NCBI GenBank assembly: GCA_002763265.1
Contig: PEZQ01000006.1
Span: forward strand, 94,141 to 158,140
From: an archaeon CG10_big_fil_rev_8_21_14_0_10_43_11
GTDB lineage: Archaea > Nanobdellota > Nanobdellia > PEZQ01
Reading direction: 5' to 3'
Length of the DNA stretch: 64,000 nt
The notes under the pieces are model-generated. The model was not told the DNA's origin. It did no database searches and saw only the letters and a list, made by a program, of their open reading frames with translations. This document shows positions 29,308 through 50,433 of the stretch, one piece after another (position 1 is the first letter of the stretch; each line of letters opens with the position of its first letter). Made by a program: the position numbers and the translations under genes.

Positions 29308-29334
29308 AAAGATAAAAGTGAATGTATCTTATGA

Positions 29335-33194: not shown

Positions 33195-36100
33195 TTACAA
33201 CCATCCAAACAGGAAGTCAACAACTCCTGAAACAATATCTACGCCAATATCAACTGCATCTTCAATTGTTTGTGCAGCGCCAGTTGCAAGCGCATTTGCC
33301 GCTTCTGCGACGGTATCAACAAATTCGGCGATTTCTTCGGCAAGCACGTCCAGGTCAAACACGTAAATGACAAAGTCAACAGCGCGCTGCGCGCCGCCAA
33401 TCACGCCTTTGTCAACCAAACATACGGTCAGCTCTATTGGCTGATTTGGAAAGTGATTTTTTCCGCACGTAAGCATGTCGCCAAGCCATGCCTGCGTGAC
33501 CGGCAGCAGGTTTTGGAACCTGCCAAGGATGCAGGCAAAACTGCCTAAATAATCAGTAAACGCGCCTTCAAGCCCGCATCGCCCAAACACGGATGGAATG
33601 GAAAACGGATCAAGAAGCGAGCCGAGGAAGCACACTGCCGTGTCCCAGCGCACGCCGCACGCGTACGCAGGCGCTTCACCGCATTTGCCTTCATACTGGT
33701 TCGTGCCTGTGTTGAATTCCCATACCCAGCGCTGGCCGTGTGGACAGCAATAATATTGAGGCTCTATTTCAGGTCTTAGAGGGTCAGCATCGTACACGCT
33801 TGTTCGCCCTGCAGGACAGCACACCCCTTGTTGTGTGGTCGTGTTTGTTCGTGAGTGTTCATACCCGCTTGGACAGCAATACCTGCTTTGTCCTCCATTA
33901 ACTTGAGAGTATGATGAGCCTTCGCATGCGCAGGCATCAACGGTTTTTGCCGCAACTTCTTTGAGCAGGTTGTTGTTTTTCGCGTTTGGAATCGTGGTAA
34001 GCACGCATCCTGATTCATCTGACGCTGTGCAGCTTGGTTGACAAACCACATTACCATCATGCGTATCCGCGCCGCGCACGAGTTCTCCGCGATATTTTTG
34101 TTTGCATGAAAGGTCAGCCCAGTTCTTACAGGGGTAGACAAGTTGTTGTGCTGATTCAAAAAGCACACAGAGGGGAGTTTCCCCGGTTGCATCGCCGCGC
34201 GCCCAAAAACAATACCCCTGCTCGCCAGATGGAAGTGTGTCTCCAGTTAAGGTTTTGCAGTCCCAATCAGCAACAGTTTCTCCGCTGCGCGTTCTACACT
34301 CATTATCGGTATAGCAACGCAGGCTTGCTCCATCAAACGTGTTTTGAATTACCGGCCCAGACCATGCACAATACGTGGTGCCGTCAGCTGCCGTGTTACA
34401 GCTTGGTGTTCCTAAGAGGCCAAGGCGTGCAATGTCTTGAGGACAATCGCTTGCCGTAGTGCATGAAAGGTATTGCTCATTTTCAATTTCATCATTGTTT
34501 GGCGCAAATGACGCGTAGTCATTGTCTTTTTCAAGATAAATATCACCCGGGCAGGTGAGACATGATTCTCCCTTGTCAGAGTCTAAAAAATCGTTTCCGC
34601 ATTGCGGCCAAATATCATATGAGAGAGTTCCTGATGCTACATCCTCAAAGACTTGTACGGGAAGCACTGTGTCTTCATCCGTAGCAAACACGCCAAGGTC
34701 ATAGTAGTAGTCGTATTCGCCGCAATATGCCCATTGCAGGCTGATGTCTTCACGACACACTTGCCCGGGATTAATTGATTTTGCAACGCGCGGGCTTGGT
34801 GTTGCGTCTCGCACGCATTTTTGTTCTTCTGGAGGAAATTGACAGCAGACATTATCATTTGCTGCATCACGCTGTACTGACTGGATGTTTGGTATTTCAA
34901 TTGTGTACGCGTAGCATTCATTGTCTTCAAAAACGCACGTGCGCGTCTGGCAAGTGAAACTATTGCTTTTCTTTTCACAGCGGGTTGCTTGAACAAATGT
35001 GTCTTGTGACGCGCACTGTGCTGCGCTTGTGCCGGGTTTTTCGCATTTGAGGGTTTGAGAATTGAGAGTGTAGCCGGTTGGACACGAGTATTGCACGTCC
35101 TGCAGGTAGCAGGAATCACCATAGTATTGTTTTGAATCAGTTTCAAACGTGATGCGGAAGTTTGGCTGGTTTGATGCTGATGCAATATTTGTATTTGAGG
35201 AATCAGTAAAAAGAAATTCGTTTATTCCTTCAGGATAGAGCACAAACCGGTTATCAACAAGGTCTTCAAAGGGTTGCTGGCTCACACTCACGCTTTGAGT
35301 CGAAGCACCCGTAGTAGTATCTGCAAGGTCAAGAAGCACCTCTGGCTGTTCGTTAATATAGGTGTACACGGTTGTTGAGCGCAGGTAGTCAAGCCCTTCA
35401 ATACCATCAATTTGCAGGGTTTCAGCGCCTACGTTTCCAATAAGAATGTAGCGTACCGGCTGGTTGATAAGAATAAGATGGTCATGAGCAGAGTTGTCAA
35501 CATCATATGATGAGAATTGCCCCCAGTTCGCGTTATTTGCATTATCAATTTTTATAAACACGCCAAGACGCGTTGTTTTCCCGCTTTCGGGCGTTTTTAA
35601 GCCGGTTATGCGTATTGAAGCAATGGTTTTGAGGTTTCCGCTTGCATCAACATTGTTTGATGTGTCTATTTTTGTCCAGTGATAGAATGTTTCCTGCAAA
35701 TCAATTGTTGCACACGTGCCTCCTGCTGCGGTTCGGTATTGAGTGTATTTTTTCTGGTTTCCATTGTCATAGATGCCCGTGTTCACATCTTTGCATTCTT
35801 CAATACAGTCTGAAATGCCATTATTGTTTGCATCAATGCCTTCATCAACCGGACCGTTCTGGTTGTTGTCAAGCCCGTCGCAAATTTCTGGCGCAGTTGG
35901 ATAAATATTAGCATTAGAGTCGTCCGCGTCCCCGTCACATTCCGTGTCGTAGCCATCCCCGTCAGCATCAGTTATTACTTCACGGTACACTGAGCATGAG
36001 AGCGTCTGGCAGCCACAGGTTGAACTACACGAGTTTGAGAGGTCAGCATAGTTGCGATACGTTCCGCTGTAACACCCATCTAAGTGGTCGCACTCAGTTG

Positions 36101-36521
36101 CATCACAATCACTGTTTGAATCGCATTCTGCGCCGCAAATTCCTTCATGGCATTGGTAGGTAGCGTCGCAATTGTATTTTCCGCACAGCGCGGATTTTTG
36201 GCCGCTGCAAAGCGTGCCGTCTCCTGATTCCCACCCATCACAAACCGTTACTGACGAGTCACAGTCTTTTTCGCAGCGTATAAACGTATTTGAATAATCA
36301 TGGTTGTCACCGCAAAAAATATTTCCTCCCTTGCTGCTGCACCCGCCATCCGTACTCCCACCGGACCAGCAACATCCGTTTGATGCCCACGCATCGGTAC
36401 ATGAATTCGCATACGCGCTTTGGAGTGCGCCAAGGCTTGCAAGAACAACAATGAATATGAAAAGTGTTCGGGTTCTCATTCGCTTCCCGCACCTCCTCCT
36501 TTTTGTGTTGAAAAAACGCAT
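33195..36521 (-). CDS. 1108-aa secreted Cys/Asp-rich protein with MopE-like putative metal-binding repeat
   Basis: Sec-type signal peptide (..ALQSAYA); DADGDGYDTECDGDADDSNANIYPTAPEICDGLDNNQNG matches the DxDxDG...C.D....PGA.E.CDG.DN.C 'putative metal-binding motif' (MopE-like). Confidence 0.55.
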   Translation of the reverse strand: MRFFNTKRRRCGKRMRTRTLFIFIVVLASLGALQSAYANSCTDAWASNGCCWSGGSTDGGCSSKGGNIFCGDNHDYSNTFIRCEKDCDSSVTVCDGWESGDGTLCSGQKSALCGKYNCDATYQCHEGICGAECDSNSDCDATECDHLDGCYSGTYRNYADLSNSCSSTCGCQTLSCSVYREVITDADGDGYDTECDGDADDSNANIYPTAPEICDGLDNNQNGPVDEGIDANNNGISDCIEECKDVNTGIYDNGNQKKYTQYRTAAGGTCATIDLQETFYHWTKIDTSNNVDASGNLKTIASIRITGLKTPESGKTTRLGVFIKIDNANNANWGQFSSYDVDNSAHDHLILINQPVRYILIGNVGAETLQIDGIEGLDYLRSTTVYTYINEQPEVLLDLADTTTGASTQSVSVSQQPFEDLVDNRFVLYPEGINEFLFTDSSNTNIASASNQPNFRITFETDSKQYYGDSCYLQDVQYSCPTGYTLNSQTLKCEKPGTSAAQCASQDTFVQATRCEKKSNSFTCQTRTCVFEDNECYAYTIEIPNIQSVQRDAANDNVCCQFPPEEQKCVRDATPSPRVAKSINPGQVCREDISLQWAYCGEYDYYYDLGVFATDEDTVLPVQVFEDVASGTLSYDIWPQCGNDFLDSDKGESCLTCPGDIYLEKDNDYASFAPNNDEIENEQYLSCTTASDCPQDIARLGLLGTPSCNTAADGTTYCAWSGPVIQNTFDGASLRCYTDNECRTRSGETVADWDCKTLTGDTLPSGEQGYCFWARGDATGETPLCVLFESAQQLVYPCKNWADLSCKQKYRGELVRGADTHDGNVVCQPSCTASDESGCVLTTIPNAKNNNLLKEVAAKTVDACACEGSSYSQVNGGQSRYCCPSGYEHSRTNTTTQQGVCCPAGRTSVYDADPLRPEIEPQYYCCPHGQRWVWEFNTGTNQYEGKCGEAPAYACGVRWDTAVCFLGSLLDPFSIPSVFGRCGLEGAFTDYLGSFACILGRFQNLLPVTQAWLGDMLTCGKNHFPNQPIELTVCLVDKGVIGGAQRAVDFVIYVFDLDVLAEEIAEFVDTVAEAANALATGAAQTIEDAVDIGVDIVSGVVDFLFGWL

Positions 36522-38239
36522 TGTTGGTTTTCATTGCAGCGATACAATGTTTTTCCTTCCACACACACGTCATCGTAACAGTCACTATCAGAACAGTCCG
36601 TACCGCCCGTGCCATCATTGTCAACGCCATCATAACAAATTTGTTCTGTGCACACGCCTTGTACTGATGAACAAATAGCGCCAGTGCCGCATGAAGCCCC
36701 ACCACAATTCGGGTCAGCGCAATCAATAAGCCCATCTTTGTCATCATCCACACCATTAACGCAGTTTGATTCAGGAGGAAGCGCAGTAGCAATTTGTGAG
36801 ATAGGCTGTTTGCTTCCCGGAATAGTAAAACTGCGCTTGTCTGTTGCCATAATCGGCGCAATGTCGCTTGTTCTGATAACGCCCACGCTACCGAGGTGTG
36901 TTGATTCAAAGATTTTTGCATCAAAAGGCAATTCGGTGATGGTGATAGTTGCTGAGTCAAACCACCACGCGTAATCAGGCGTGTTTTCAAGATTGCCAAA
37001 AGAAGCATAAATCGAGGAGATGCTGCCAGCGTAATCAAGATAGGTAAAGTCTTTTTCTGTGGTTCGAGAAACAAGCGCATGGGTGGTTTCTAAATAATTG
37101 CACAGGTACGCGGGCAGAGGAGTTGCAGAATAAAAGTTACACGCGCAATTCACATTTCCTCCGCCACACGTGTTTTCAAGCGTGTTAAACTCGCAGGTGT
37201 TTTTATCACCAATAACTTCTGCGCCTTTAATGCCAAACGCCCATTTGACCGGCGTGCTCAGATATTTGACCGTGCTAATATCAGCACTGCCAAGACCCAC
37301 GCGCAAGTCAGTAAACACAACAGAATCGCCAGGCACAAGGTTTGAGTTTTGTTGTGGAATAAAATACACTACAGTATCAACCCCTGCGCGCACGGGTTGT
37401 GTGATGTCGAGTATAATCGTGTTTCCTTTATCCTGATTGAATGACTGGCACATAACGGTCTCACCAGCGCGTGTGACGTGCACATGTTTTCCAGTCATGC
37501 ATGAGTCACAGGATGCATCATTTGTTCCGTCGCACAAGCCAATACGATATTGTTGTGAGCTTTCAATATTAACTGAACCAATACTTACCACAAAACTAAA
37601 GCCGTTTCGAAACGAGGGTACGCGCACGCTAAGCCGTCCGTTAAGAACAGCCCAGTTAGAATATGGTGAGAGCGGGATAGTTGCAGGATATGATTCAAAC
37701 ACATACTCATCTTCATAGCGAAACCGCGCACCATCCCAATAAAATAGTAGTTCGGGTGTTGTTGCTTGTGCGTCATCAAGAAATGTTGTGTGCACATATG
37801 ATTCTTCAACAGAAAACACGTCCCTGCATTGCCCGGGGCATTCTGCAAACGCGCGGGGAAGTGAGCAGTAGTCGCCTTTGCATTTGCACACGTTTGCGTA
37901 TGTGACACTTGATGCTTGTGAATAACAGATATAAAAGTTTTCAAATGAGTCGCAGGTCGTATCAGAACTGCACGTCCCTGCAAAGCAGTCCGCACAGGTT
38001 TGGTCATTTTCAGTTATCGCACAAATCGTGTTGTAGTCGCATTGTGTGCAGTCTTGTGAGCATGTTTGCGGGTTTTCATTGTATTCACACACGCCGTTTC
38101 CGCACGAATTTGAAAGCGCGCATTGCGCTCCTGACTCGCCGCTTGTACACCACCCGTCTGTTGATGAAAAGAGCGCGTGCGTTCCTGAAATGCTTACGAG
38201 TAAGCCAAGAACAGTGAGGACAAGCAGGACGGGTTTCAT
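36476..38239 (-). CDS. 587-aa secreted Cys-rich protein with C-terminal C.DG.D.D.DG..DC repeats
   Basis: Sec signal peptide; CVNGVDDDKDGLIDCADPNCG and CYDGVDNDGTGGTDCSDSDC repeats. Confidence 0.5.
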   Translation of the reverse strand: MKPVLLVLTVLGLLVSISGTHALFSSTDGWCTSGESGAQCALSNSCGNGVCEYNENPQTCSQDCTQCDYNTICAITENDQTCADCFAGTCSSDTTCDSFENFYICYSQASSVTYANVCKCKGDYCSLPRAFAECPGQCRDVFSVEESYVHTTFLDDAQATTPELLFYWDGARFRYEDEYVFESYPATIPLSPYSNWAVLNGRLSVRVPSFRNGFSFVVSIGSVNIESSQQYRIGLCDGTNDASCDSCMTGKHVHVTRAGETVMCQSFNQDKGNTIILDITQPVRAGVDTVVYFIPQQNSNLVPGDSVVFTDLRVGLGSADISTVKYLSTPVKWAFGIKGAEVIGDKNTCEFNTLENTCGGGNVNCACNFYSATPLPAYLCNYLETTHALVSRTTEKDFTYLDYAGSISSIYASFGNLENTPDYAWWFDSATITITELPFDAKIFESTHLGSVGVIRTSDIAPIMATDKRSFTIPGSKQPISQIATALPPESNCVNGVDDDKDGLIDCADPNCGGASCGTGAICSSVQGVCTEQICYDGVDNDGTGGTDCSDSDCYDDVCVEGKTLYRCNENQQCVFSTQKGGGAGSE

Positions 38240-41001
38240 TATTGTTTCACCATCACTCCATTATTGCATCGGTAGGTTGCGTCATACAGGTTCGCACTCC
38301 ACGTGTCTCCTGCATCGCACATCTTGCACTGGCCGCTTCCTGATGAGAAATCACAATACCCCGCAAGCCCGTCTGAAAAACCATTCGGGTCACAGTAACG
38401 GTCGTCACTTATGCAGGACTGACCATCAACGCCTCGCAAGACCCATTGCGTTAAACCTTCTTTTTCAACGCAATAGAGCGTGGCGTTTTGGGTTGTTGTT
38501 ATGGTTCTGCCAATGCCAAACACGCTTGTGCACTCGTTGCAAGATTCAGTGTTCTTAACGCACGCACTTCGAAGCCCGTTTGTAGCAAGATTTGAATCGC
38601 ATACCTGATTGTCAACCATTCCAGTATCGGTGCACGCTGTTTCTGGTGGTGCGAGGATTTCAACCCATCCTTGAGATGGTGTGCATTCATGTTCAGTGTC
38701 AGTGCTGTCAAACAGGAATTGCCCTTGCAGTGAACCCGTACAGTGGGTGCACACGCTATTTTGAGTTTGTGGCTGGTACACGCAAATGCTGTCTTGGCCG
38801 CGTGTTGCAAGGTCAACATCGCAATCACTGTTTTTCGTGCAAGAAGCGCCATTTGGTGCAAGAAGCGCAGCCTCATTGAGCTGTGTTTGAAGCAGGTCAT
38901 AAACAGAGAGCCAGTTTGTTAGCAGATTTCTTCTTTCAAGCTCGTTTACGTCAGTTTTCCAGAACAAGCGCGTAATGCAGGTTTCAAGCATTATTTCAAC
39001 GCGGCCAGGGTCTCTGAGCTCTTGGGCAGGGTCAACTTGGCTTCCTGTGTAACACCCGCAAGGGTCGCTTGGTTTTACGCACACGCCGCGCACAACATCG
39101 CGAAATGTTTGGTCAGCAAAGCTTCTGCTATCACTTACTGCACCATTCTGGCACGACGTGCACGCGGTTCGCACGAGTTGGTAGTTGAGGGTTTCTCCTG
39201 CATCAACACTCAGTTGTGATTTGTCCTCATCTGCAAAATGCAGGGTAAAACCCTGATATATCATGTTTTGATTTTGTTGTGTATTAATTGAGTCAAGCAC
39301 AAGCGTGTTAATTGTATCTTCAAAGCACGCGAACGGAGGGTTTTGCGCGTTTTGCCTGTCTTGTATGTGATACGAGTTGCAGCGATTGTTTTGGATGGTG
39401 CACGTGGTTTGCACGCTTTGAGGAATAACGTCTGATGTCCATACCTCGCCTGATTCTTTTGCCTGAGTCCAGGACGCAAGGTTACACGTTTTTGTTGGGG
39501 GCTCGTAACGAATAGTACAGCAGGCGTCATCCTTGTACGCAAGCGGTTCGTTTGGGTTACAGGTATTGCTTGCCCGAAGCAAATACCACTTCCATCGCGT
39601 TGCTTCTGACTCGCCAAAGAGTATTTCTTGTGAGGGAATTTCAACCATGTTCCCGTCAAGTGCTCTTCCTAACGTTTGAGGGTACCAACCCACGTGCGCG
39701 CATTCCAAATCGCTAGAAGAAACAGTAAGCAATCCATTCTCATCAGTACAGGTTTTTCCTGCAGGACATTCCCAGTCATCGCACGCGCATACAAATCGTT
39801 TGTCAGTAGGGATATTTTCTTCTTTTGGACAGTCAATCTCGCACGTATCTTTTGGCGTGAAGCATCCGGGCGTGTTTGAAAGCTGCGGGTTCATGCACAC
39901 AAAAAAGCAGCCATTCATAACCCCGTCAATCTGGCACGTGTTTGGGTTACACCCGCTTGCTTCTGCCATAAATGTGCAATAAAGTGCACGAAGAGAATAT
40001 TCATCAGATGATTCAAGATAACTGAGCGCAAGTTGTGTTTCAGTGTCAAACGTGGTATCGCCTGCAATAGTTGATTCGCACTCATTTTGCTGGCAGTTTT
40101 GTGCAAGAAGAATATCTCCGCTAATCGTGCGGTACGGTTCAAGGGCTTGTTCGACATAGGTATGGTACGCATTTGTGTTGACAAAGCTTTGCACGCTTCG
40201 GTAGAGGCGGGAAAAAGGCGTGGTGACCTCGCTTGAAACAATAACATCAAATTCATATGTGAGCAGGGGTTTATTTACTTGTGAAACAGGAACATCTCCA
40301 TAATCAAAACTGATACCACCTTGCGCGCTTGCAACGCGCCAGTCTGCAACAAACGAGTCTGAGCCTGCAGTGAGCCCTTTTACAATAAGGTCATAGGCAA
40401 GGTCAAGTGCAATGTTTGCGGTTTGTTTAAGATACGCAATAACACCGGTTGGTTTTTGGTAGAAGTCTTGTGCAAGGTTAAGAAAATTTTCTTTAACAAA
40501 ATCAAAAGGAGGATAATCAATGCAAGTAATATCCCTGCATGTCCCGTTTGGACAGTCTTTGACAAAGTTTTGTCCATAGTACTGCGAATCAGTATCATAG
40601 CGAAGCGAATAGTACGGCACGTCTTTTTCAGGCACAAAACGTGTCTCAACGGTTTTTTTGCCGCACGCGTACGTTAGCTCTCCAGCAGGACTCGTTGCAG
40701 TATCACTGTATCCTGTCTCTCCAGGAGCAAGCCGTGTTGCTTTTTCAAAAGAAAGACCAAAGCCACCGCGTGATGCAATGTAAAAGATTGAGCGGTCCAT
40801 CACGTAGTTTCGTTCCTGTTGCAAAAGAAGTTTGACTGTTTCTGCTTGCGAGACCGCGTTGAGTACTGCTTCTTTATAGTTTGGAACCCCGCTTGTACTT
40901 GAAAGCCGAAAAGCAAACGTTCCCATGGCGTATCCAAGTATGATTGCAATAGCAAGGGTAGTGACTGCTGATGCAATGATTTGCCCGCGTCGCGACATCA
41001 A
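38239..41001 (-). CDS. 920-aa giant pilin-like / adhesin-like protein with class III signal peptide
   Basis: MMSRRG|QIIASAVTTLAIAIILG N-terminus; ~50 Cys in the body. Confidence 0.5.
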   Translation of the reverse strand: MMSRRGQIIASAVTTLAIAIILGYAMGTFAFRLSSTSGVPNYKEAVLNAVSQAETVKLLLQQERNYVMDRSIFYIASRGGFGLSFEKATRLAPGETGYSDTATSPAGELTYACGKKTVETRFVPEKDVPYYSLRYDTDSQYYGQNFVKDCPNGTCRDITCIDYPPFDFVKENFLNLAQDFYQKPTGVIAYLKQTANIALDLAYDLIVKGLTAGSDSFVADWRVASAQGGISFDYGDVPVSQVNKPLLTYEFDVIVSSEVTTPFSRLYRSVQSFVNTNAYHTYVEQALEPYRTISGDILLAQNCQQNECESTIAGDTTFDTETQLALSYLESSDEYSLRALYCTFMAEASGCNPNTCQIDGVMNGCFFVCMNPQLSNTPGCFTPKDTCEIDCPKEENIPTDKRFVCACDDWECPAGKTCTDENGLLTVSSSDLECAHVGWYPQTLGRALDGNMVEIPSQEILFGESEATRWKWYLLRASNTCNPNEPLAYKDDACCTIRYEPPTKTCNLASWTQAKESGEVWTSDVIPQSVQTTCTIQNNRCNSYHIQDRQNAQNPPFACFEDTINTLVLDSINTQQNQNMIYQGFTLHFADEDKSQLSVDAGETLNYQLVRTACTSCQNGAVSDSRSFADQTFRDVVRGVCVKPSDPCGCYTGSQVDPAQELRDPGRVEIMLETCITRLFWKTDVNELERRNLLTNWLSVYDLLQTQLNEAALLAPNGASCTKNSDCDVDLATRGQDSICVYQPQTQNSVCTHCTGSLQGQFLFDSTDTEHECTPSQGWVEILAPPETACTDTGMVDNQVCDSNLATNGLRSACVKNTESCNECTSVFGIGRTITTTQNATLYCVEKEGLTQWVLRGVDGQSCISDDRYCDPNGFSDGLAGYCDFSSGSGQCKMCDAGDTWSANLYDATYRCNNGVMVKQ

Positions 41002-41073
41002 GACGTTTAAACTCCCCTGTTTTTATGTGCTACTCATAGTGAAGGTGTTCTGTTAATATAAGATTTCTTAAAG

Positions 41074-41805
41074 TCAAGATGCGCAGCATTGAAAACCAGT
41101 TCCGCAGCTTGGTTCAAGCACGCTCACACCCTCATCACAGGACGGCCTGCACATCCCGCCCGCGCTGTTGCACGCGCGTGCATCTCCGCCCCCAAGAAAC
41201 AAACAGCATGAAAGAGATGCGTCATCGCAGTAGTTTGCATTCTTTCCTAGTTGATATTCAAAATTGCCGCACTGTGGTTTACATTCCCCGCTTTTTTGAT
41301 TTTCGCAAAACGTGATTTTGTCTTGTCCAATTTGCACAAATATTACATCATACACACCGCTTCCGCCTATGGTTTTTGGATGGTAAATAGTTGAATTACA
41401 CTGCATTATTACTTGTCGTATGCCCAAATCACGCAGGCAGGGCACAACTTCGCTTTCGGTTCCAGAACATATGCCAATATAGAGGTCTTCAGACTCAAAT
41501 GCGCGAAGCGCATCTTGAGAGAATCCAAATTCGCGTTCAAGCGTATCAATATTATAGAATTGTATGAGTTGATTTGCAGACCTACTATCAGGAAGGTCGC
41601 TTCGCACTGAATAATCGGTTCCTACAATATTAAACAATAGATTTGAACACATCGCAGCAGTGCGCGCTTGTTCAAGCGAGAGAACACCTTGAAGGGTGAA
41701 TTCACCAATAACAAATTCAGTTACAAGAATGCCGCCAAGAGCAAGAATGATATTAAACAATATTGCAAGGCTGCCAATGAGAAGCGCTCCTTTTTTGTCT
41801 ATCAT
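41074..41805 (-). CDS. 243-aa Cys-rich protein with class III signal peptide
   Basis: MIDKKG|ALLIGSLAILFNIILAL. Confidence 0.5.
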   Translation of the reverse strand: MIDKKGALLIGSLAILFNIILALGGILVTEFVIGEFTLQGVLSLEQARTAAMCSNLLFNIVGTDYSVRSDLPDSRSANQLIQFYNIDTLEREFGFSQDALRAFESEDLYIGICSGTESEVVPCLRDLGIRQVIMQCNSTIYHPKTIGGSGVYDVIFVQIGQDKITFCENQKSGECKPQCGNFEYQLGKNANYCDDASLSCCLFLGGGDARACNSAGGMCRPSCDEGVSVLEPSCGTGFQCCAS

Positions 41806-42926
41806 CCTCGTACGCGTTCCTCCACAACTATGTAGCCATTTGCTGATTTATGCAGTCTCATATAATCAATTGATAAACCACCAGAATATTCTGAAGCCGG
41901 CAGCACTGAGAACATGTAGTAATCGCCTTGGTGGATAAGCAGGGGTGCGTCAGTGAGTTGATATGAATCAGGCAGCGCGCTACAACCAAGCGCGTCTAGC
42001 GGGGTACAGTCAAGAACACTTACTTCATTTTCGCACGCTTGCCATGCAAAGAATTGTCGTGTTGCCCCGTCAAGAAGCTGAAGGATTGCGCGCTTGCACC
42101 CCGGACCAGTCAGGTCTGCAGTGCACCCCGCGATATCGCGCGCACGCGCCGTACCAAGATAGGTGTAGGCAAGCTGATCTTCAAATGTGAGCGTGTTTAT
42201 GCTAATGGGATTTGCGTATTCAGCATAGACGTGGTCTTTAATGTCTTGCAGGAATTGGTTGTAACCGCCGCGTCCTGAAACATCATGACACCCATTGTAC
42301 TTGATAAGACACATGCACGTGCGGTCAGCGCATGCTTCAATAAGTTTTGTGTCGCGAACCAAAGCTAACCCCTGCGCAATGCCTTGCGTGTTTCGAGAGT
42401 CAACAATAATAGTGCCGCTTTGCGCGCTTGCAGCAGGGTTGAGCACAGTTTTTCCGCGCGGTATGCAGCATGCTTGCAAACAGTCTTGACCTTCAGCACA
42501 GCAGGTGAGTGAAGGATACCATGTGTTTGGCGCGCATTCAGTTGAGCACAGACCGTCATCACAGCTCATGCATTGGCCGCCATTTTGCACGCATGAGAGC
42601 CCATAGTCAAAGGTTTCATACCCTTTATTTTTGCCATAGGCGGTTGTTGTGCTGTACACAGCATTGTCTGTGCTTGTTGCAAGATAGAATTGGGTAATGC
42701 TATGCTGTGGGGGGAGCGCAAAATCAAACAAATCGCCTGCAAGGTCTGCTGACTTGCACGCATCCAAAACCGTATCTTTAAAAGAATCAAAACCATCTTG
42801 TGCTGAACCACCGGTTCCCAGGCCAAACCCAAGAAGGGGACCAATCACAATAAGCAAAAGCACGAGCGAGATTGCACCAATAAACACGCCAAGAATGATT
42901 TCAAGCGAGACAAATCCGCGTTTCAT
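41802..42926 (-). CDS. 374-aa minor-pilin/tip-adhesin-like protein with bacterial-style prepilin N-terminus
   Basis: MKRG|FVSLEIILGVFIGAI with Glu at +5; ATGA overlap on both sides. Confidence 0.5.
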   Translation of the reverse strand: MKRGFVSLEIILGVFIGAISLVLLLIVIGPLLGFGLGTGGSAQDGFDSFKDTVLDACKSADLAGDLFDFALPPQHSITQFYLATSTDNAVYSTTTAYGKNKGYETFDYGLSCVQNGGQCMSCDDGLCSTECAPNTWYPSLTCCAEGQDCLQACCIPRGKTVLNPAASAQSGTIIVDSRNTQGIAQGLALVRDTKLIEACADRTCMCLIKYNGCHDVSGRGGYNQFLQDIKDHVYAEYANPISINTLTFEDQLAYTYLGTARARDIAGCTADLTGPGCKRAILQLLDGATRQFFAWQACENEVSVLDCTPLDALGCSALPDSYQLTDAPLLIHQGDYYMFSVLPASEYSGGLSIDYMRLHKSANGYIVVEERVRG

Positions 42927-43885
42927 GTTCGCACAAACACCTCAACGTTATCTATGCGCAGCACTTCAGCATCGCGTGAAATACTAATGCGGTCAAATTT
43001 TTGTGCAGTTAGGGGAAACGCGAGAATTGCGCGGTTGCTTTTTTCAGTAAGAAGGGTTTCATTTGTGCACGCGCCCCTATTTTTAAGAGATTCACAAGCA
43101 ACAATGCTGTATTGGTCTTTGCACTCATAATTTTCAAGAAATGTTTTTGTAAAGGATTTAATCTGGTCAAGCGGGTTTGCACTGCTTGCAAGTGCTATAG
43201 CAGAATAATCATGAAGGTTGTTGAGAATAGCATTTCGCCTGCTTTGTTCTGACGTATACACATACTGAGACAAGGCGGGTTTGTATGCTAATACGCCTTG
43301 GCTGAATATGGTTTGATAGAGTCTGGTTCCTCCTTGCGTGCAGCACACGCCTGAATCACAGGCCCCTTCACGCGCAATTGATTCAACAAGTTGTATTTCT
43401 GTGCTGCCTCTGCATGCAATTGAATTAACATCGCACTCATCTTGTCTGTAACTCTCCTCAGTTCTGCATTGGTTTTTGCAGCTTCCTTCAATTGTGTTGC
43501 AATCCCGCGTAATACAGCTTCCCACATACACAAGACACAGGCAGGTTGAATCAGTGCAATCCTCTTCAAGTGCGCTAATGTTTGCAAACGCTTCCTGCGT
43601 GTTCTTGTTTGAGCTTGTAAAATTAGTTTGGGATTTATCAAAATCTGCAAATTGAAAAATGTGCCAGTTTTCACTCATTTCAAGACCAGGAATGCTTGTT
43701 GATGCGTCAGAACTGCAGGCGTGGGGGAGTTTAAGCGTAAATGTGGCAAAGTTTGCTTGTTCAGAAACCGTTGCTGCAGTGCCAACAGTCACGCTGATGA
43801 TTGGCGCAAGAAAGGGAAGTGAAACAGCAACAATAATAATAGCAATCAAAATAGCAACAATCGTGTCTACTCCCCGTTTATTCAT
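42923..43885 (-). CDS. ~320-aa Cys-rich protein with class III signal peptide
   Basis: MNKRG|VDTIVAILIAIIIVAV (internal Met chosen as start). Confidence 0.45.
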   Translation of the reverse strand: MNKRGVDTIVAILIAIIIVAVSLPFLAPIISVTVGTAATVSEQANFATFTLKLPHACSSDASTSIPGLEMSENWHIFQFADFDKSQTNFTSSNKNTQEAFANISALEEDCTDSTCLCLVYVGSCITRDCNTIEGSCKNQCRTEESYRQDECDVNSIACRGSTEIQLVESIAREGACDSGVCCTQGGTRLYQTIFSQGVLAYKPALSQYVYTSEQSRRNAILNNLHDYSAIALASSANPLDQIKSFTKTFLENYECKDQYSIVACESLKNRGACTNETLLTEKSNRAILAFPLTAQKFDRISISRDAEVLRIDNVEVFVRT

Positions 43886-43920
43886 ATTGAGAATTAGGCA
43901 TACTGCGCTTATTAAATTTC

Positions 43921-44184
43921 TCAAATCAAAACAAGCCGCGGCGCAAAAACAAATGGCTGAGAATACGCGCTGCTTTGGGTTGGCACACCAATGCCCAAGC
44001 GGTCTTCAAGCTGTGATTCTGCTTCATTAAGTGAAGAATTGCCAATGCCAATCATGCGCTCAAGCATAGCACCAATCTGGTCGCGCTGCGTAATAAAAAG
44101 CAGGATAAGGGCTAAAAGCACAAAAATAACTAGCAGTATTGCTGCGATTTGTGAAAAGGTAAATCCTTTTTTAGTCATCATCAA
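43921..44184 (-). CDS. short pilin (KG|FTFSQ class III signal)
   Basis: MMMTKKG|FTFSQIAAILLVIFVLLALILLF. Confidence 0.55.
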   Translation of the reverse strand: MMMTKKGFTFSQIAAILLVIFVLLALILLFITQRDQIGAMLERMIGIGNSSLNEAESQLEDRLGIGVPTQSSAYSQPFVFAPRLVLI

Positions 44185-44187
44185 CCA

Positions 44188-44463
44188 CTATACACAACAA
44201 TGAGGCGAAGCAACAGCACAATTCCATTGCCCAATATCAGTTTCTCCAGCAGCACACGCTGCTTTGCACGCACCACCTTGACCCGTACATGAAGTGAGAA
44301 GTCCTGATACGTTGCCAACGCCTTGCTCAACGCCTTTTGAGATACTTGAGACCGAGCTTCCTGCTCCCTGAATTTGTGTGGCAAACAACACAATCACGGC
44401 AATAAGCCCAAGCACGACAAGAAGAATGACTGCAAGTTGTTGAAATGTAAAACCCTTTTGCAT
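44188..44463 (-). CDS. short pilin paralog (KG|FTFQQ), Cys-knot C-terminus
   Basis: MQKG|FTFQQLAVILLVVLGLIAV ... C..GQGGACKAACAAG...CAVASPHCC. Confidence 0.6.
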   Translation of the reverse strand: MQKGFTFQQLAVILLVVLGLIAVIVLFATQIQGAGSSVSSISKGVEQGVGNVSGLLTSCTGQGGACKAACAAGETDIGQWNCAVASPHCCV

Positions 44464-44496
44464 ACCTCAATTAGAAGCACTTTGCTATTTTAAAGT

Positions 44497-44781
44497 TTAT
44501 TTAGGAACGCAACATTTTGCAGCAGTGCTTGGACAATCACTCGTTCCCGTGTCTGTTTGAGAAGCACTGCATGACGCTTTGCACTCGCCTCCTGCAAGGT
44601 CGCATACAAGTCCTGCCACACTTTCACCTGCTGCTTGCGACCCTCCGGTTGCTTGTTCGCCAACATCAGTAATGCTTCCCCCTGCTTGTCTAAACTGAGT
44701 GGCAGCAAGCACAACTGACACAACAAGACCTAAAATAACCAGAAGCAATACTGCCATTTGCGTAAAGGTAAAGCCCTTTTG
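44497..44781 (-). CDS. short pilin paralog (KG|FTFTQ)
   Basis: MQKG|FTFTQMAVLLLVILGLVVSV ... CDLAGGECKASCSAS...CPSTAAKCC. Confidence 0.6.
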   Translation of the reverse strand, partial: QKGFTFTQMAVLLLVILGLVVSVVLAATQFRQAGGSITDVGEQATGGSQAAGESVAGLVCDLAGGECKASCSASQTDTGTSDCPSTAAKCCVPK

Positions 44782-44837
44782 CATGACTAGTGTTAGAACA
44801 ATCAAATATTATAAAGGTAATTAAAAAAAAGAAGAGG

Positions 44838-45275
44838 TTATGCGCACGTATTGTCTAGTTGGCACGTTCCTGATTCGCATTCTGCATCGTCAGCACAGGT
44901 TGCACCGGTTGGGAGAAGTGACGCACCAGTAGCTGCTTCTTTGCAACAGTATATTGCGCCACTATCCTGACAGCCAATGTCTAAACCCGAGTCAGCATTT
45001 GCTAAATCAGTGGTCGTGCTTCCGCCTACATTGAGGTATACATCGCACGCATCAGCGCATTGCACGCCGCCAATAGTTCTGCACGCGAGTCCTGCGCTTG
45101 CAGTAACTGCTGCTTGTGTTCCTGATGTTGCTTGACTGCCAAGTTCTGAAATGCTTCCCGCACTTGCGCCAAGCTGAGTGCTTGCAAGAATAACGCCAAC
45201 AGTAAGACCAAGAATGACCAGAATAAGTGTTGCCATCTGGGCAAAAGTGAAACCCTTTCTTGACATGGTATTCAT
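44838..45275 (-). CDS. pilin paralog (RKG|FTFAQ), longer Cys-rich head
   Basis: MNTMSRKG|FTFAQMATLILVILGLTVGV; start ambiguous (ATG at 45266, 45275 or 45293). Confidence 0.55.
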   Translation of the reverse strand: MNTMSRKGFTFAQMATLILVILGLTVGVILASTQLGASAGSISELGSQATSGTQAAVTASAGLACRTIGGVQCADACDVYLNVGGSTTTDLANADSGLDIGCQDSGAIYCCKEAATGASLLPTGATCADDAECESGTCQLDNTCA

Positions 45276-45318
45276 ACTAGTGGCTCTTTGCATATTTATA
45301 GTTTATCTGTAAACATGG

Positions 45319-45600
45319 TTATTTTCTGCAGCAAACAAAGTTTTCCCCACTGCACGGCAGGTCAAGGGTGTTTTCAGGCGTGCACGATTCTCTGCATTCA
45401 CCGCCAAAATTCCCGCATTGAATGCTTTGTTCTGCGGATTGGGCTCCTGTTTCAGCACCTTGTGTTGCTGCGCTTTGCAAGTCTGAAATGCTTCCCGCAC
45501 TTGCAGCAAATTGAGTGCTTGCAAGAATAATAGCAACAGTAAGACCAAGAATAACAAGAATGAGCACGGCCATTTGTTCAAAGGTAAATCCTTTTTTCAT
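45319..45600 (-). CDS. short pilin paralog (KKG|FTFEQ)
   Basis: MKKG|FTFEQMAVLILVILGLTVAI ... CGNFGGECRESC...CSGENFVCC. Confidence 0.6.
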   Translation of the reverse strand: MKKGFTFEQMAVLILVILGLTVAIILASTQFAASAGSISDLQSAATQGAETGAQSAEQSIQCGNFGGECRESCTPENTLDLPCSGENFVCCRK

Positions 45601-45609
45601 TTTTTCTCT

Positions 45610-46050
45610 TTAACCACCAACCGTTCCGCCGCCAACCTGACCAAAACTACCCCCACTTAAACATTCTTCTTGTCCAATGCTTGTGCGCCTTCCTCCTGAG
45701 AGCGTGACTTGACACGCGGTTCCTCCAGTAACAATAGTGTCATAACAGTGGTCTTCATCATTAGGATTTCCGTCTTCTTTCAGACTAAACACCGTCGTGC
45801 AGTACGGCAACTCTCCGGCGTTTTGCGGGGTTGCAAGCAGGTTATCCATTGACAAACAATATTGTGTGCATTGGCTTCTTATTGCCGTGATTTCCACATT
45901 GCTTGTTGCACCAGCACTGCTTTGAGCAAGTGATGATGAAAGCCGCGAGATGCCTCCAGTAAAAAGAATAATAATTGTTGAGAGAACAAGCACTGCCAAA
46001 ATGATTTTGACAATGAAATTAAGACTCAAACCCTGCCCCCTCGTGTTCAT
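45610..46050 (-). CDS. 146-aa pilin-like protein (RG|QGLS class III-like signal)
   Basis: MNTRG|QGLSLNFIVKIILAVLVLSTIIILF; Gly-rich C-terminus. Confidence 0.45.
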   Translation of the reverse strand: MNTRGQGLSLNFIVKIILAVLVLSTIIILFTGGISRLSSSLAQSSAGATSNVEITAIRSQCTQYCLSMDNLLATPQNAGELPYCTTVFSLKEDGNPNDEDHCYDTIVTGGTACQVTLSGGRRTSIGQEECLSGGSFGQVGGGTVGG

Positions 46051-46103
46051 GTGTATACTTAAGCCTAAAGGAAGTTATAAATTGTTCGCTAACACACTCC
46101 CGC

Positions 46104-46292
46104 TTAAATCAGGCTGCCCGCGCCCTGCTGTATTGTTTCATTGACAATGTCAACAATGCGTCCTGCCTGACTTGCCTGGCTTTGTTGTGCAACAAACGCA
46201 AGAACAAGCAAAGTAAGCAAAACAAACAGTCCAAGCAGGATGAGCGCGATAGTGTTAATATCAACTGCTTTTTTGGTTAGTTTTGGCAACAA
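46104..46292 (-). CDS. 62-aa single-TM protein
   Basis: basic N-term then TM helix; 16-nt overlap with downstream gene. Confidence 0.35.
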   Translation of the reverse strand: MLPKLTKKAVDINTIALILLGLFVLLTLLVLAFVAQQSQASQAGRIVDIVNETIQQGAGSLI

Positions 46293-46942
46293 AACATATC
46301 CCTCCCATCTCGTGTTTGCGGACAGTACGTATCAAGATTTATTCCATCCTGGTCTTGTGGAACGCGAAATGGGTAGCTTACCGGGCACGTGATGGTGCTG
46401 CGCTGGTCGCCAGAGAGACCAAGACACCCCAAACATCCTTGCACGCACGCGTGCGTGCTTTCAACACCGACCCCAGTAACGTAATCAAAGGTATCCTCTG
46501 AACCAAGACCAACGCGTCTGTCACACGCGCGTCCAAGCGTGCCGCAATCTGCGGGACACGCATCAGGCGCGCACACACTTACCCCATCAAACTCGCATTG
46601 GTTGTCATAGCGCGTTTTTGCACAGCAATAGGCATTATCATCGCTTCGACAGCCCTTAACCGGGATGCGCATGGGGTACGTGCTTGGACACCCATCCCAC
46701 AAGGCTGAGCGGGGGTTTGCATCAGTGTTTGGTCCTATGCAGGTCATGTACGAGTTGTCAGTTGTTCCGCATTCTGATTGCTGGCCAACAATTTCTCTGC
46801 CAAGGTCAGCAACCCTGCCAAGTTGTTTGTTAGCATCAGTAAAAAAAAGAAAGTAGAGCATAATCAACGCGGCAATAATCACAAAAGGCAGGAGAAAAGT
46901 AAATATCGGTCCTTCAATAAAAAAGCTTGCTTTTCTTTTCAT
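46277..46942 (-). CDS. 221-aa N-anchored Cys-rich (18 Cys) protein
   Basis: MKRKASFFIEGPIFTFLLPFVIIAALIM anchor; CC pairs. Confidence 0.45.
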   Translation of the reverse strand: MKRKASFFIEGPIFTFLLPFVIIAALIMLYFLFFTDANKQLGRVADLGREIVGQQSECGTTDNSYMTCIGPNTDANPRSALWDGCPSTYPMRIPVKGCRSDDNAYCCAKTRYDNQCEFDGVSVCAPDACPADCGTLGRACDRRVGLGSEDTFDYVTGVGVESTHACVQGCLGCLGLSGDQRSTITCPVSYPFRVPQDQDGINLDTYCPQTRDGRDMFCCQN

Positions 46943-47085
46943 AGTATGTTTGCTCCTGCATCAACAAGGTCTTGTATGAGGTCAGGAAGGTTTCTTCCAA
47001 GCGTAATAACAAGCAGTACAAACACGACAAATAAGAAAATAAGAAACACCCATACCAGTATTTGGTTTGTCACTCCCCGCTTCAT
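46939..47085 (-). CDS. 48-aa pilin-like micro-protein (KRG|VTNQ..), absent from ORF track
   Basis: MKRGVTNQILVWVFLIFLFVVFVLLVITLGRNLPDLIQDLVDAGANIL translated by hand; its TGA stop overlaps the ATG of the downstream gene (ATGA). Confidence 0.45.
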   Translation of the reverse strand: MKRGVTNQILVWVFLIFLFVVFVLLVITLGRNLPDLIQDLVDAGANIL

Positions 47086-47119
47086 GCACTAGTAGGGGGT
47101 AGTGTGCACATTTATAGTT

Positions 47120-48937
47120 TTATGTGCATGGTGAAAAATCCTGCGCCCCGCATTCTGCGTTATGGTATTGACAGTACCCAAATGCTGGTGAAATGTCTCC
47201 CGCTCGATTTTTTCCGCCTTCATAGGTGAGCCCAAGCGTCAGGTCCGAACACGCGCGCCCGCCTTCCCACAGTACGCGCGCATCTTCTGCGCTGCTGATT
47301 GGTCCAAATGAATCTTCAACAATACATGCAAGCAAACGGTCATTACGCGGCTTTCCGCCGGTAATCAGGTTGAATATTGACGGGTCTGCGACAACTGCTG
47401 CAGCAATGTTTGAACCAAACATAAGCCCATTACAATCGTCCCATGCTGCAGATGAGGCGCGCGCCTGAAAAATGTTGCCCATAAGGATTTCAGCTCCAAC
47501 ATCTTCATCCTGGTATTCGGTTGTCCAGTCCCAGTAACCCAGTTTAAATGAGCCGCTTGTAAGCGTAAGCGGATTGCATTGGTTATCACATGCGTTTGTT
47601 GAATCTTCCCAGGGCCAGCACATGGGGTTTGCATTATCATCATCGCCAAATGCTTCGGCAAAATCACCGGAAAGAAGGCTGCACGGGCTTGTGCGAAACT
47701 GGTCAGGGGTAAGCGTATCATTATACAAGTAAAACGGGAAAATATCTGCGCGCTCCTGCGCGTCTTGCATACGCGCTCCTGCGTACGCGTCAACAATAGC
47801 CCCTGAAGGAGATGAGCCAATGTTTGAAAGAAGTTGTCCAAATTCAGCTCCAGAAAGTTCAATAACCATATCAATTGCAATGCTTGAATCTGAAGGGATG
47901 CTTCCTAACGTGCGCGTGGTTCCTGCTGCAGTAACTTTGGTATTGCCACCTTTGTAGTCTGTGGTAAAAAGAACCGTAGGATAATCAGCAGCCTCACCAA
48001 TTCCCAGGTTTGCGAGTTGCGCTAAAAGCGCGTCTAGACCGGCTACAGGATAGAGGCGTGCAATAAGGTTATTTGTTACTTCCTGACATCCACCTTCACC
48101 AACACTGCCACCAACCTGACAATTCACATAATTAGCAGGGCAGGGTGAGCCGTCATTGAAGCTTTTACTGCAGTACATGATTTGGGTGCGCATGTTTTGA
48201 GGCAGGCATAGCGCGGGGGTTACTTCTTTTGTTTGTGAACCAACTGAAAGCGTACAGTCAAGGTCTTGAATGTCTTGTCCGTTAAGCCATACAAGTTTTC
48301 CTTCTGACGCGCTTTGCGAGTCTTTAATACGCGTGGTGTAAAACGCGCTTGCGTACAAATAATCTGAAAGGGTCATTTGAGAAATGCTTTTAGTTAAAAA
48401 TAACGCAGGACTGCGCGAGCTTCCCGCAGACCAGACAAGCGCAGAAGGCACGGATTCTAAAAATGTATCACCAGTGATGCGCGCACTCTGAGAAAAATCG
48501 TATTCTGTTGCAGCACACAGTGCAGGGTTTCCTGCAGCATACAGTGGTTTGAGCGCGCTTCCCGCATCATACATGCCCCAGCAAAGCGAGCCATACCGTC
48601 CGGCCCACTGCCCAAATTCAAGGGAGTTTGTGAATGTGCCATGAGAAAAGATAGGACAAATTGTTTCTATCGGGATAAGTGAAGCCACGCGTTGCGCGCC
48701 TCCAAGCGCGCGACCAAAAAGGTTAAACCAGCCTTGCGGGCTTAACAGGTCACCGCCCGTGACTTGGCTGCCAATGGTTCCGCGAATAGTTGCAAAATCA
48801 TTGCAAATGTCTGCACGAAACTCATCAAGACCTGATACGCGATTGACAAGCAGTACAAATGCTGAAACGGTGAGAATTGCGAGAATAATAATTGATATAA
48901 TGAATGTTCCGATTCGCTCTCTGTTCTCTTCTGCCAT
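47120..48937 (-). CDS. 605-aa N-anchored extracellular protein
   Basis: basic N-term plus TM helix (RERIGTFIISIIILAILTV), 20+ Cys, no known domain recognised. Confidence 0.45.
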   Translation of the reverse strand: MAEENRERIGTFIISIIILAILTVSAFVLLVNRVSGLDEFRADICNDFATIRGTIGSQVTGGDLLSPQGWFNLFGRALGGAQRVASLIPIETICPIFSHGTFTNSLEFGQWAGRYGSLCWGMYDAGSALKPLYAAGNPALCAATEYDFSQSARITGDTFLESVPSALVWSAGSSRSPALFLTKSISQMTLSDYLYASAFYTTRIKDSQSASEGKLVWLNGQDIQDLDCTLSVGSQTKEVTPALCLPQNMRTQIMYCSKSFNDGSPCPANYVNCQVGGSVGEGGCQEVTNNLIARLYPVAGLDALLAQLANLGIGEAADYPTVLFTTDYKGGNTKVTAAGTTRTLGSIPSDSSIAIDMVIELSGAEFGQLLSNIGSSPSGAIVDAYAGARMQDAQERADIFPFYLYNDTLTPDQFRTSPCSLLSGDFAEAFGDDDNANPMCWPWEDSTNACDNQCNPLTLTSGSFKLGYWDWTTEYQDEDVGAEILMGNIFQARASSAAWDDCNGLMFGSNIAAAVVADPSIFNLITGGKPRNDRLLACIVEDSFGPISSAEDARVLWEGGRACSDLTLGLTYEGGKNRAGDISPAFGYCQYHNAECGAQDFSPCT

Positions 48938-48960
48938 ACGTGTTCTAGTCCTCTTTATTA

Positions 48961-50427: not shown

Positions 50428-50433
50428 AGTAGT

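Follow-up and report, generated by a model that had tools for sequence, protein, structure and literature searches.

Can the filament machinery of an archaeon display proteins of up to 920 amino acids (aa) as pilin-like subunits? The question is raised by a 64,000-nucleotide stretch of contig PEZQ01000006.1, referred to below as the window, which comes from the metagenome-assembled genome (MAG) of a tiny, uncultured Woesearchaeota-like DPANN archaeon from Crystal Geyser groundwater (archaeon CG10_big_fil_rev_8_21_14_0_10_43_11) and holds on its minus strand a ~30-kb operon for an archaeal type IV filament (TFF), read from 60022 to 30076. The operon contains a FlaI/CpaF-type ATPase and its polytopic partner, at least eight small pilins, three Cys-rich giants with Sec-type signals and further membrane-anchored proteins, and more than 400 extracellular Cys residues are encoded across it. 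An original prediction had described five of its large proteins (920, 243, 374, 320 and 529 aa) as candidate pilin-fused adhesins that begin with prepilin-type, class III signals, and all five open reading frames (ORFs) were found where it had placed them, all on the minus strand. Our analysis indicates that these five proteins are probably class III-signal minor pilin-like subunits of an archaeal type IV filament, enlarged by module accretion. Judged by sequence, the case for a class III pilin-like protein appears strong at 920 and 243 aa, fair at 320 aa and weak at 374 aa, with the 529-aa protein as a candidate.

Class III-like N-termini and their conservation

The 920-aa protein begins M(M)SRRG↓QIIASAV, with 920 residues from a TTG start and 919 from the next ATG, and the others begin MIDKKG↓ALLIGSL (243 aa), MKRG↓FVSLE (374 aa), MNKRG↓VDTIVAIL (320 aa) and MNSKG↓QLKLILAL (529 aa), the arrow marking the predicted cleavage site. 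According to the archaeal prepilin rule, the cleavage site precedes the H-domain, −1 is G, A or S and −2 is charged (PMC4371748); our test also required a site within ~15 residues of the start and an H-domain of membrane-spanning length. All five proteins fit, with RG↓Q, KG↓A, RG↓F, RG↓V and KG↓Q, respectively, at positions 4–6. Each has a single hydrophobic segment, always N-terminal, which runs for 20–34 residues after the Gly, compared with 15–17 residues in those three signal peptides of the operon that are clearly of Sec type, all of which end in an Ala-X-Ala-type site. The pattern originally described, a basic residue pair followed by Gly and a hydrophobic helix, is therefore present as [KR]G plus a hydrophobic run in all five, with the correction that the 529-aa protein has a single basic residue. 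The proteins contain 50 (920 aa), 16 (243 aa), 20 (374 aa), 16 (320 aa) and 14 (529 aa) Cys residues. The Glu at position +5 of the 374-aa protein is present as described; as a meaningful feature it was ruled out, since the orthologue of that protein does not have it and it varies among the short pilins.

When all six frames of the window were scanned for [KR][GA] no more than 16 residues from a start and ahead of an 18-mer of strong hydrophobicity, 15 matches resulted, 13 of which lie in one minus-strand block (38239–55682). The ATPase of the operon has 244 relatives in GTDB genomes at 50–55% identity, with titles that are mostly Woesearchaeota/Nanoarchaeia and include many "uncultured Methanosarcinales" MAGs, and the best 80 of these 244 were used for related-locus comparisons. 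Of the 81 ORFs that lie downstream of the platform gene in the Woesearchaeota loci, 27 have [KR]G ahead of an N-terminal hydrophobic segment, compared with 5 of 292 others (Fisher p = 2e-15). This enrichment, together with the clustering in the six-frame scan, indicates that the class III pattern does not arise by chance. Where the flanks are long enough, many of the related Woesearchaeota loci contain the ATPase, the platform gene and then 6–10 genes for proteins of 114–551 aa, which begin with M[ND]K[KR]G and a following hydrophobic helix. In the window operon at least 14 proteins of 48–920 aa have class III-like N-termini within the single minus-strand block; beyond those originally described, the set includes proteins of 221 and 146 aa, five pilins of 85–142 aa and mini-pilins of 48 and 62 aa. 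The motif of the large proteins is identical to that of these small pilins.

An exhaustive HMMER search with the 920-aa protein returned 10 relatives of 308–1274 aa, whose contigs supplied the comparison loci. In one of these (L089, GCA_053534155.1) the full operon order is conserved, with orthologues at 29–67% identity; L091 is a second close orthologous operon, and L086, L088 and L093 are more distant. The −2/−1 motif of the 920-, 243- and 320-aa proteins is kept in every relative found, even at 25–45% identity. All 11 members of the 920-aa family (family D) have a [KR][GAS]↓Q/A start, Gln at +1 being invariant in the 10-sequence alignment (23–51% identity) and replaced by Ala in the most distant, eleventh member. 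The motif is likewise kept in six of six members of the 243-aa family (family C; KKG↓A three times, KKG↓D, KKG↓Q and RKS↓Q, with relatives from L089, L091, L093, L086 and L088) and in three of three members of the 320-aa family, the orthologues of which start VNKRG↓I (L089, 32% identity) and MNNRG↓G (L091, corrected start). In both the 920-aa protein (63% compared with 44%) and the 243-aa protein (57% compared with 33%), conservation is higher over the first 35 residues than over the remainder. A class III reading is also favored by L093 (1953–4582), where most short pilin paralogues are leaderless, with Met at the predicted +1 (MEFQTI, MQFQTI) and no upstream start codon, and one keeps MNNKG↓MEFQTI; this arrangement suggests that the pilins of this locus can do without peptidase processing. 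The placing of class III signal candidates in a type IV filament operon is upheld, and in these three families every relative has the motif; in the 374-aa family two of six members have it.

Downstream of a homologous ATPase in locus L051 (14910–20873), a 1987-aa protein with 140 Cys residues starts MKKKG and has an N-terminus that looks Sec-like (VKA↓Q). Because of this protein, KKG followed by a hydrophobic stretch is not regarded as sufficient evidence for a class III signal.

Modular families, small pilins and the six-Cys knot

Family D consists of a conserved N-terminal module of ~295 aa, with invariant residues that include S36, Y41, E53, K56, E62, R63, G78 and G79, and a variable Cys-rich tail that ranges from zero to ~980 residues (members 308–1274 aa) and comprises ~625 aa in the window protein. 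Since the shared module carries tails of varying length, the 920-aa protein is modular, and to this extent the original idea of a pilin fusion fits. A word-indexed search with a profile of the module gave four matches only. In the AlphaFold2 (AF2) model of the module, which is of low confidence (predicted local distance difference test score, pLDDT, 64.6), helices at residues 3–33 and 41–76 are followed by an alpha/beta region.

Accretion is visible in family C as well, where the number of knot domains described below rises from zero in L086 (188 aa) to one in L089 (205 aa) and two in the window; the family C relatives have 157–205 aa, making the 243-aa protein the largest member. The 320-aa family spans 320–332 aa, and for the 374-aa protein the close orthologues, of which there are three, have 316–374 aa. 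The term "giant", originally applied to all of these proteins, consequently suits only the one of 920 aa. In the relatives, families A, B, C and D stand in fixed order near the operon end and are followed by a Sec-type Cys-rich giant; the order B-C-D and then the giant is seen in L086, L088 and L093, and C and D are always adjacent and in that order. In the window, the A and B genes (30912–33137 and 30076–30930) have moved from before the 243/920 pair to behind the Sec-type giants.

The small pilin set comprises the 146-aa pilin, the five paralogues of 85–142 aa and the two mini-pilins, whose class III-signal genes, encoding 48 and 62 aa, fall below usual ORF length cut-offs. The 146-aa pilin, a candidate major subunit, is the only pilin conserved across Woesearchaeota loci: it matches pilins of ~114–144 aa in L012, L026, L052, L061, L072 and L083 (phmmer, E 1e-8 to 1e-11) and is 67% identical to its L089 orthologue. 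The 48-aa mini-pilin, which is without a globular domain like Flp/Epd-type pilins, could also be the main fibre subunit. A scan of the GTDB collection with the short-pilin alignment found nothing, and a scan of metagenomes found two short contigs. One short pilin gave a weak match to the GspH N-terminus (E 0.014).

Four of the five short pilins carry a six-Cys knot at the C-terminal end, and the same knot is found twice in the 243-aa protein and once, as a variant, in the 374-aa protein. The knot has 30–47 residues with the spacing C-x6-C-x3-C-x9..14-C-x5..7-CC and Gly-Gly before Cys2, a pattern that fits 10 of 11 domains. A Pfam scan of 12 sequences of pilin type, of which ten have the knot (nine are short pilins, the others the 243-aa protein and two of its relatives), gave matches to Defensin_beta_2 (6), Defensin_big (4) and Defensin_beta (4), all sub-threshold, the best scoring 17.4 bits against a cutoff of 22.2. 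When a ten-knot profile was compared with 177,635 distinct PDB sequences, all seven matches had the beta-defensin fold, at weak E values of 0.02–9 with hBD-3 as the best (0.023). All defensin matches were lost when the non-Cys residues were shuffled (a single shuffle), which rules out Cys spacing alone as their cause. The AF2 model of one knot, obtained with seven window paralogues, reached a pLDDT of 75.3 and may echo the sequence pattern; its top Foldseek match is human beta-defensin 4 (PDB ID 5ki9; probability 0.99, template modelling score 0.69, root mean square deviation 1.6 Å, E 0.14), and 17 of the 20 matches are of defensin type.

The knot therefore resembles beta-defensins and big defensins in Cys spacing, in the Gly-Gly before Cys2 and in a model nearest to human beta-defensin 4, and it resembles big defensins in the pairing of a hydrophobic N-terminal part with a knot (PMC7203481). 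In contrast to beta-defensins, the knot domains are anionic (net charge −1 to −5) rather than cationic, are fused to a pilin helix and score below the family thresholds. They were found only in the window organism and two or three close relatives (L089, L090, L091), and because of this restricted distribution convergence is the simpler reading. According to one view, trans-defensins arose only in animals (PMC7203481), and a true beta-defensin fold in the archaeal knot would bear on that origin. A farther-reaching proposal, which we consider unlikely, is that a DPANN filament decorated with disulfide-knotted modules, including a beta-defensin fold that would be the first of trans-defensin type outside animals, and with modular tip-type subunits of up to ~100 kDa (1274 aa in relatives), is a polyvalent host-attachment or host-membrane-engaging organelle of a small Woesearchaeota clade.

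Competing explanations and known systems

If the five proteins are minor pilin-like subunits, each would be inserted into the membrane in a Sec-dependent manner through its N-terminal class III signal, and a prepilin peptidase of the PibD/FlaK/EppA type, encoded elsewhere in the genome, would cut after the Gly or Ala that follows Lys or Arg. The remaining hydrophobic helix would then allow the FlaI-type ATPase and the platform to load the proteins into a filament made mainly of small pilins (48–146 aa). The 243-aa (C) and 920-aa (D) proteins would represent conserved minor pilin-like subunits of the lineage that were enlarged by Cys-rich modules in a sub-lineage, the former having gained one and then two beta-defensin-like knots. 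By analogy with bacterial tip complexes and modular pilins, C and D would most likely be present in low copy at the tip or base of the filament with their disulfide-stabilised modules exposed outside, where these plausibly serve attachment in a host-dependent DPANN cell. Every DPANN archaeon brought into culture to date is an ectosymbiont in need of direct host contact (PMC11291902), and it is this lifestyle, together with the architecture and the Cys-rich extracellular modules, that suggests a role as adhesins. The 320-aa protein would probably behave like C and D, and the 374-aa protein may remain anchored in the membrane as a pilin-like component that is not processed.

Several results weigh against this explanation. 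A gene for a prepilin peptidase (Peptidase A24), sought with Pfam and among GxGD proteins with multiple transmembrane (TM) segments, was found neither in the 64-kb window nor in the flanks of the loci related to its operon; the GxGD search gave no candidate in the window and three in related loci, two of which lie upstream of the ATPase and are not Peptidase_A24 by Pfam, the third (L012) not having been scanned. A subunit of 100 kDa is hard to fit in a fibre except at an end. The 374-aa family has [KR]G in only two of six members (it is missing from P0002, L091_316, L093_318 and L093_341), which makes cleavage of this protein doubtful or dispensable: P0002, 58% identical to the 374-aa protein and the only other sequence returned by a word-indexed search, starts MTDETESTSFLL, and the L091 member starts MSGGDEKEMLS with stop codons upstream. 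Families A and B are similar in this respect. The 741-aa protein (A) is homologous to a 362-aa protein of L086 that starts MKKG↓AVDIA (E 1.5e-4) and to members in L089, L091 and L093, and the relatives of B start KKA↓, KKG↓ or KKS↓, but the window members of both families are without the canonical motif, the 284-aa protein starting MRRKF↓M. Because the motif is absent from most of the 374-aa family and from the window members of A and B, an N-terminal helix in this operon does not in itself prove processing. The AF2 helix of the 920-aa module breaks at residues 34–40, and Foldseek comparison of this low-confidence model with the PDB gave no pilin match (best E 0.48). The C-terminal parts of the large proteins have no Pfam, NCBIfam or PDB match and no adhesion or binding domain of the von Willebrand factor A (vWA) or lectin type, a PDB sequence search returning nothing for the 920-aa C-terminal part or the 529-aa protein. 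For the latter, a word-indexed homologue search returned only the protein itself.

Some of these results favor an alternative in which the large proteins are unprocessed type II signal-anchored proteins, either stator, alignment or envelope-anchoring parts comparable with archaellum FlaF/FlaG and bacterial PilN/PilO or tethered surface proteins, rather than fibre subunits. The retention of the N-terminal helix in the 374-aa and A families where [KR][GAS] is lost, the RRKF of the window B member, a TM helix that is separate from the next helix in the AF2 model and the lack of a peptidase gene nearby are all compatible with such anchors. However, [KR][GAS] is strict in the 920-, 243- and 320-aa families and Gln at +1 is near-invariant in D, neither of which a plain anchor needs, and the large proteins share their motif with the bona fide small pilins of the operon. 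We therefore regard a purely anchoring role for the five proteins as unlikely.

Less probable still is a bindosome-like display, in which the proteins are cleaved by the peptidase but assemble only into a surface layer or a short pseudopilus close to the cell, which would carry Cys-rich binding modules at the envelope. Sulfolobus binding proteins of 500–700 aa have class III signals with a dedicated ATPase and platform, and thousands are predicted in archaea; moreover, the second ATPase-platform-pilin locus of the window (5440–9512) could make the "real" pilus, and BasE is among the NCBIfam models (FlaI, TadA, BasE) that match the operon ATPase, all of them below threshold. On the other hand, no substrate-binding protein domain was found in the operon proteins and no ABC transporter among the scanned operon and flanking ORFs (the rest of the window having been read by eye), and the operon has its own set of at least eight small pilins, one of them conserved across Woesearchaeota, which argues for a real filament. 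That the N-termini are ordinary Sec signal peptides, cut by signal peptidase I after the hydrophobic segment so that soluble Cys-rich exoproteins are released, is very improbable. The n/h-regions of Sec signals likewise have K/R ahead of a hydrophobic stretch, GYA↓MG in the 920-aa protein is a possible site after 15 hydrophobic residues, and the L051 protein looks Sec-type, but the hydrophobic runs exceed those of the Sec signals of the operon, GYA is lost in distant 920-family members that keep [KR][GAS]Q, and the other four proteins are without a small-X-small site at a suitable distance.

The likeness to GspK/PilY-type components of bacterial type II secretion systems (T2SS) and type IV pili, on which the original prediction had drawn, was not borne out, as the system is archaeal (FlaI/afGspE/CpaF-type ATPase) and no homology to GspK or PilY1 was detected. 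The archaeal relatives of the ATPase, and the FtsZ, Spt5 and ribosomal protein genes on the flanks of the operon, ruled out a bacterial origin or a T2SS. A resemblance remains to the GspH-I-J-K and FimU-PilV-W-X plus PilY1 sets in that a run of pilin-like genes lies at the operon end with the last (D) encoding the largest protein, and in that non-pilin, Cys-rich secreted giants are encoded alongside, as is PilY1. In contrast to these sets, there is no GspK (T2SSK) or PilY1 (beta-propeller or DUF2341) match, and the analogy is one of gene order and size alone.

The arrangement had also been called unusual, which is an overstatement, since large archaeal proteins with class III signals (PMC4371748; PMC4858521; bioRxiv 10.64898/2026.04.22.720090) and bacterial modular pilins (PMC8179133) have been described. 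The latter comprise more than 1,200 proteins in 264 architectures with sizes of up to 860 aa in a Candidate Phyla Radiation (CPR) bacterium (Raynaud et al. 2021, PMC8179133); large sizes are seen notably in the ultra-small CPR, and low copy number and exposure at the tip are predicted for these proteins. Like the modular pilins PilB/PilC of S. sanguinis and CofB of enterotoxigenic Escherichia coli (PMC8179133), the window proteins join bulky modules to an N-terminal carrier module and its class III signal, and family members share the carrier and differ in the add-ons. In contrast to them, the host and machinery are archaeal, Pfam and NCBIfam scans gave no IPR012902 or Pfam N_methyl signature, the add-ons are Cys-rich domains instead of vWA or lectin domains, and the carrier of ~295 aa has no PDB fold match.

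Among archaea, class III signals on large proteins are known from the Sulfolobus bindosome binding proteins and from the "relatively large pilins" encoded with PilB4/C4 in Haloferax (PMC4371748); minor pilins, adhesins and Cys-rich components have been predicted in archaeal TFF loci (PMC4858521), and multiple conserved Cys residues have been noted in some Thermoproteales systems (PMC4371748; PMC4858521; bioRxiv 10.64898/2026.04.22.720090). The window proteins share with these archaeal proteins a charged residue at −2, G, A or S at −1, an H-domain of TM length, a large mature protein and a FlaI-family ATPase with a platform, and they differ in their DPANN/Woesearchaeota host and in belonging to families without a Pfam or NCBIfam model. 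The operon fits "system 2" (bioRxiv 10.64898/2026.04.22.720090) in its extended ATPase, single platform gene, pilin-like proteins with and without a class III signal peptide (SPIII and non-SPIII) and large adhesin-like proteins. EppA-type substrates have KG↓Q (PMC4371748), and in the Epd pili of M. maripaludis EppA processes the sites KG↓QV, KG↓QI and KG↓QL; [KR]G↓Q recurs in the 146-aa pilin, in the 529-aa protein and throughout the alignment of the 920-aa family, and the 48-aa pilin is likewise without a globular domain. In contrast, the site is KG↓F in the short pilins and KG↓A, RG↓F and RG↓V in the 243-, 374- and 320-aa proteins, respectively, one platform gene is present instead of two, and no EppA gene was seen in the window or the flanks of related loci.

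From these sequence comparisons, the large proteins do not appear to be members of the GspK/PilY1, bindosome-protein or bacterial N-methyl pilin families. The principle itself is already known; new here are the lineage, the families, the Cys-rich modules and the visible accretion of modules on conserved minor subunits, by which the "modular pilin" principle is extended from bacteria to archaea. Little is known of the molecules by which DPANN archaea make contact with their hosts, and for one Woesearchaeota lineage the operon supplies a concrete candidate. A filament machine that is conserved while its low-copy subunits evolve fast and gain modules is the pattern expected for host recognition. 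The N-terminal rule, [KR][GAS]↓Q plus the conserved ~295-aa module, is usable to find more members.

The operon and its surroundings

The positions of the operon genes, of the knots and of a second filament locus are collected in Table 1. The best PDB relatives of the 761-aa ATPase are A. fulgidus GspE (2oap), CpaF and FlaI. The 708-aa polytopic protein had zero matches in Pfam or PDB sequence searches; its counterpart adjoins the ATPase in 69 of the 81 sources with an ATPase match (the 80 related loci plus the window), and along its whole length it shows homology to the partner encoded with the second ATPase (7181–9010; E 3e-26). From this context we infer that it is the platform protein.

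Table 1. Position of the filament genes and knot domains in the window
Feature	Position	Strand	Remarks
Second compact type IV filament locus	5440–9512	+	583-aa T2SSE ATPase, 609-aa polytopic partner, 175-aa pilin-like protein
284-aa protein, family B	30076–30930	-	starts MRRKF↓M; last operon gene
741-aa N-terminally anchored protein, family A	30912–33137	-	starts MAQELL, without class III motif
1108-aa Cys-rich secreted protein	33195–36521	-	Sec-type signal peptide, 72 Cys
587-aa Cys-rich secreted protein	36476–38239	-	39 Cys; ordinary signal peptide of Sec type
920-aa modular minor pilin-like protein, family D	38239–41001	-	MSRRG↓QIIAS, 50 Cys
243-aa minor pilin-like protein, family C	41074–41805	-	MIDKKG↓ALLIG, 16 Cys, two C-terminal knots
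374-aa protein	41802–42926	-	MKRG↓FVSLE, 20 Cys, knot-like module at residues 110–144
320-aa class III-like protein	42923–43885	-	MNKRG↓V, 16 Cys
Five paralogous short pilins, 85–142 aa	43921–45600 (45319–45600, 44838–45266, 44497–44784, 44188–44463, 43921–44178)	-	invariant KG↓FTFxQ (alignment)
146-aa pilin	45610–46050	-	MNTRG↓QGLSL; candidate major subunit
62-aa mini-pilin candidate	46104–46292	-	..TKKA↓VDINTIALILLG..
221-aa class III-like protein	46277–46942	-	MKRKA↓S, 18 Cys; L089 orthologue starts MRKKG↓S
48-aa mini-pilin	46939–47085	-	MKRG↓VTNQILVWVF, without globular domain; L089 orthologue VRKG↓ITNQILVWVF
Other operon genes: 353, 488, 605 and 819 aa	47120–54096	-	353, 488, 605 aa: N-terminal anchor without canonical motif; 819 aa: Sec signal
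529-aa protein	54093–55682	-	MNSKG↓QLKLIL, Asp-rich Ca-binding-type repeats; locus tag COT72_03370
Polytopic membrane "platform" candidate, 708 aa	55684–57810	-	~9 TM segments; topology, position, conservation
Type IV filament assembly ATPase, 761 aa	57737–60022	-	long N-terminal extension; Pfam T2SSE, E 1.4e-18
Knots of the short pilins	44188–45600	-
Knots of the 243-aa protein	41077–41328	-	residues 165–202 and 211–243
Knot of the 374-aa protein	42489–42614	-

Four of the five large-protein genes are tightly packed, with 4-nt ATGA overlaps at 42923–42926 and 41802–41805 and a 1-nt overlap at 38239, and GGAGG-like motifs lie upstream of several of them. The gene of the 529-aa protein ends 1 nt from the platform gene, in agreement with the position originally described; the protein has the expected Asp repeats, of the DxDxDG type, and the thrombospondin-type-3 (TSP3) likeness amounts to a weak NCBIfam match at residues 289–352 (E 4.6e-4). 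Scans of ~30 operon proteins with Pfam and NCBIfam gave matches above cutoff only for the ATPase (T2SSE) and two Sec-type giants (Cu-binding_MopE motif): the 1108-aa giant (E 7.5e-8) and the 819-aa giant (within 50583–53042, minus strand), which has 74 Cys residues. The NCBIfam acidic double-disulfide repeat matches the 587-aa giant just under its cutoff (E 8e-10) and the 819-aa giant likewise below cutoff, and counterparts of the Sec-type giants in relatives carry NosD or beta-helix domains (L086). By analogy with PilY1 in bacteria, the three giants (587, 1108 and 819 aa) may be non-pilin partners of the filament.

Archaeal genes readable in the window include those of L10, L1, L11, Spt5, FtsZ and alanyl-tRNA synthetase. 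The FKBP-FtsZ-Spt5-L11-L1-L10 neighbourhood flanks the operon both in the window (22431–30039) and in L093 (15355–21580, labelled by Pfam), indicating that the chromosomal position is conserved. In the second filament locus, the 175-aa pilin-like protein starts NKKG↓IEGLP and has a weak UpsA match (E 3.7e-4). At 15297–16615 on the minus strand, a membrane-anchored thioredoxin-type protein with a WCPFC motif, read by eye, adjoins a protein with five TM segments and no Pfam match; the two may form an extracytoplasmic thiol-disulfide system, which would be relevant to the Cys-rich operon.

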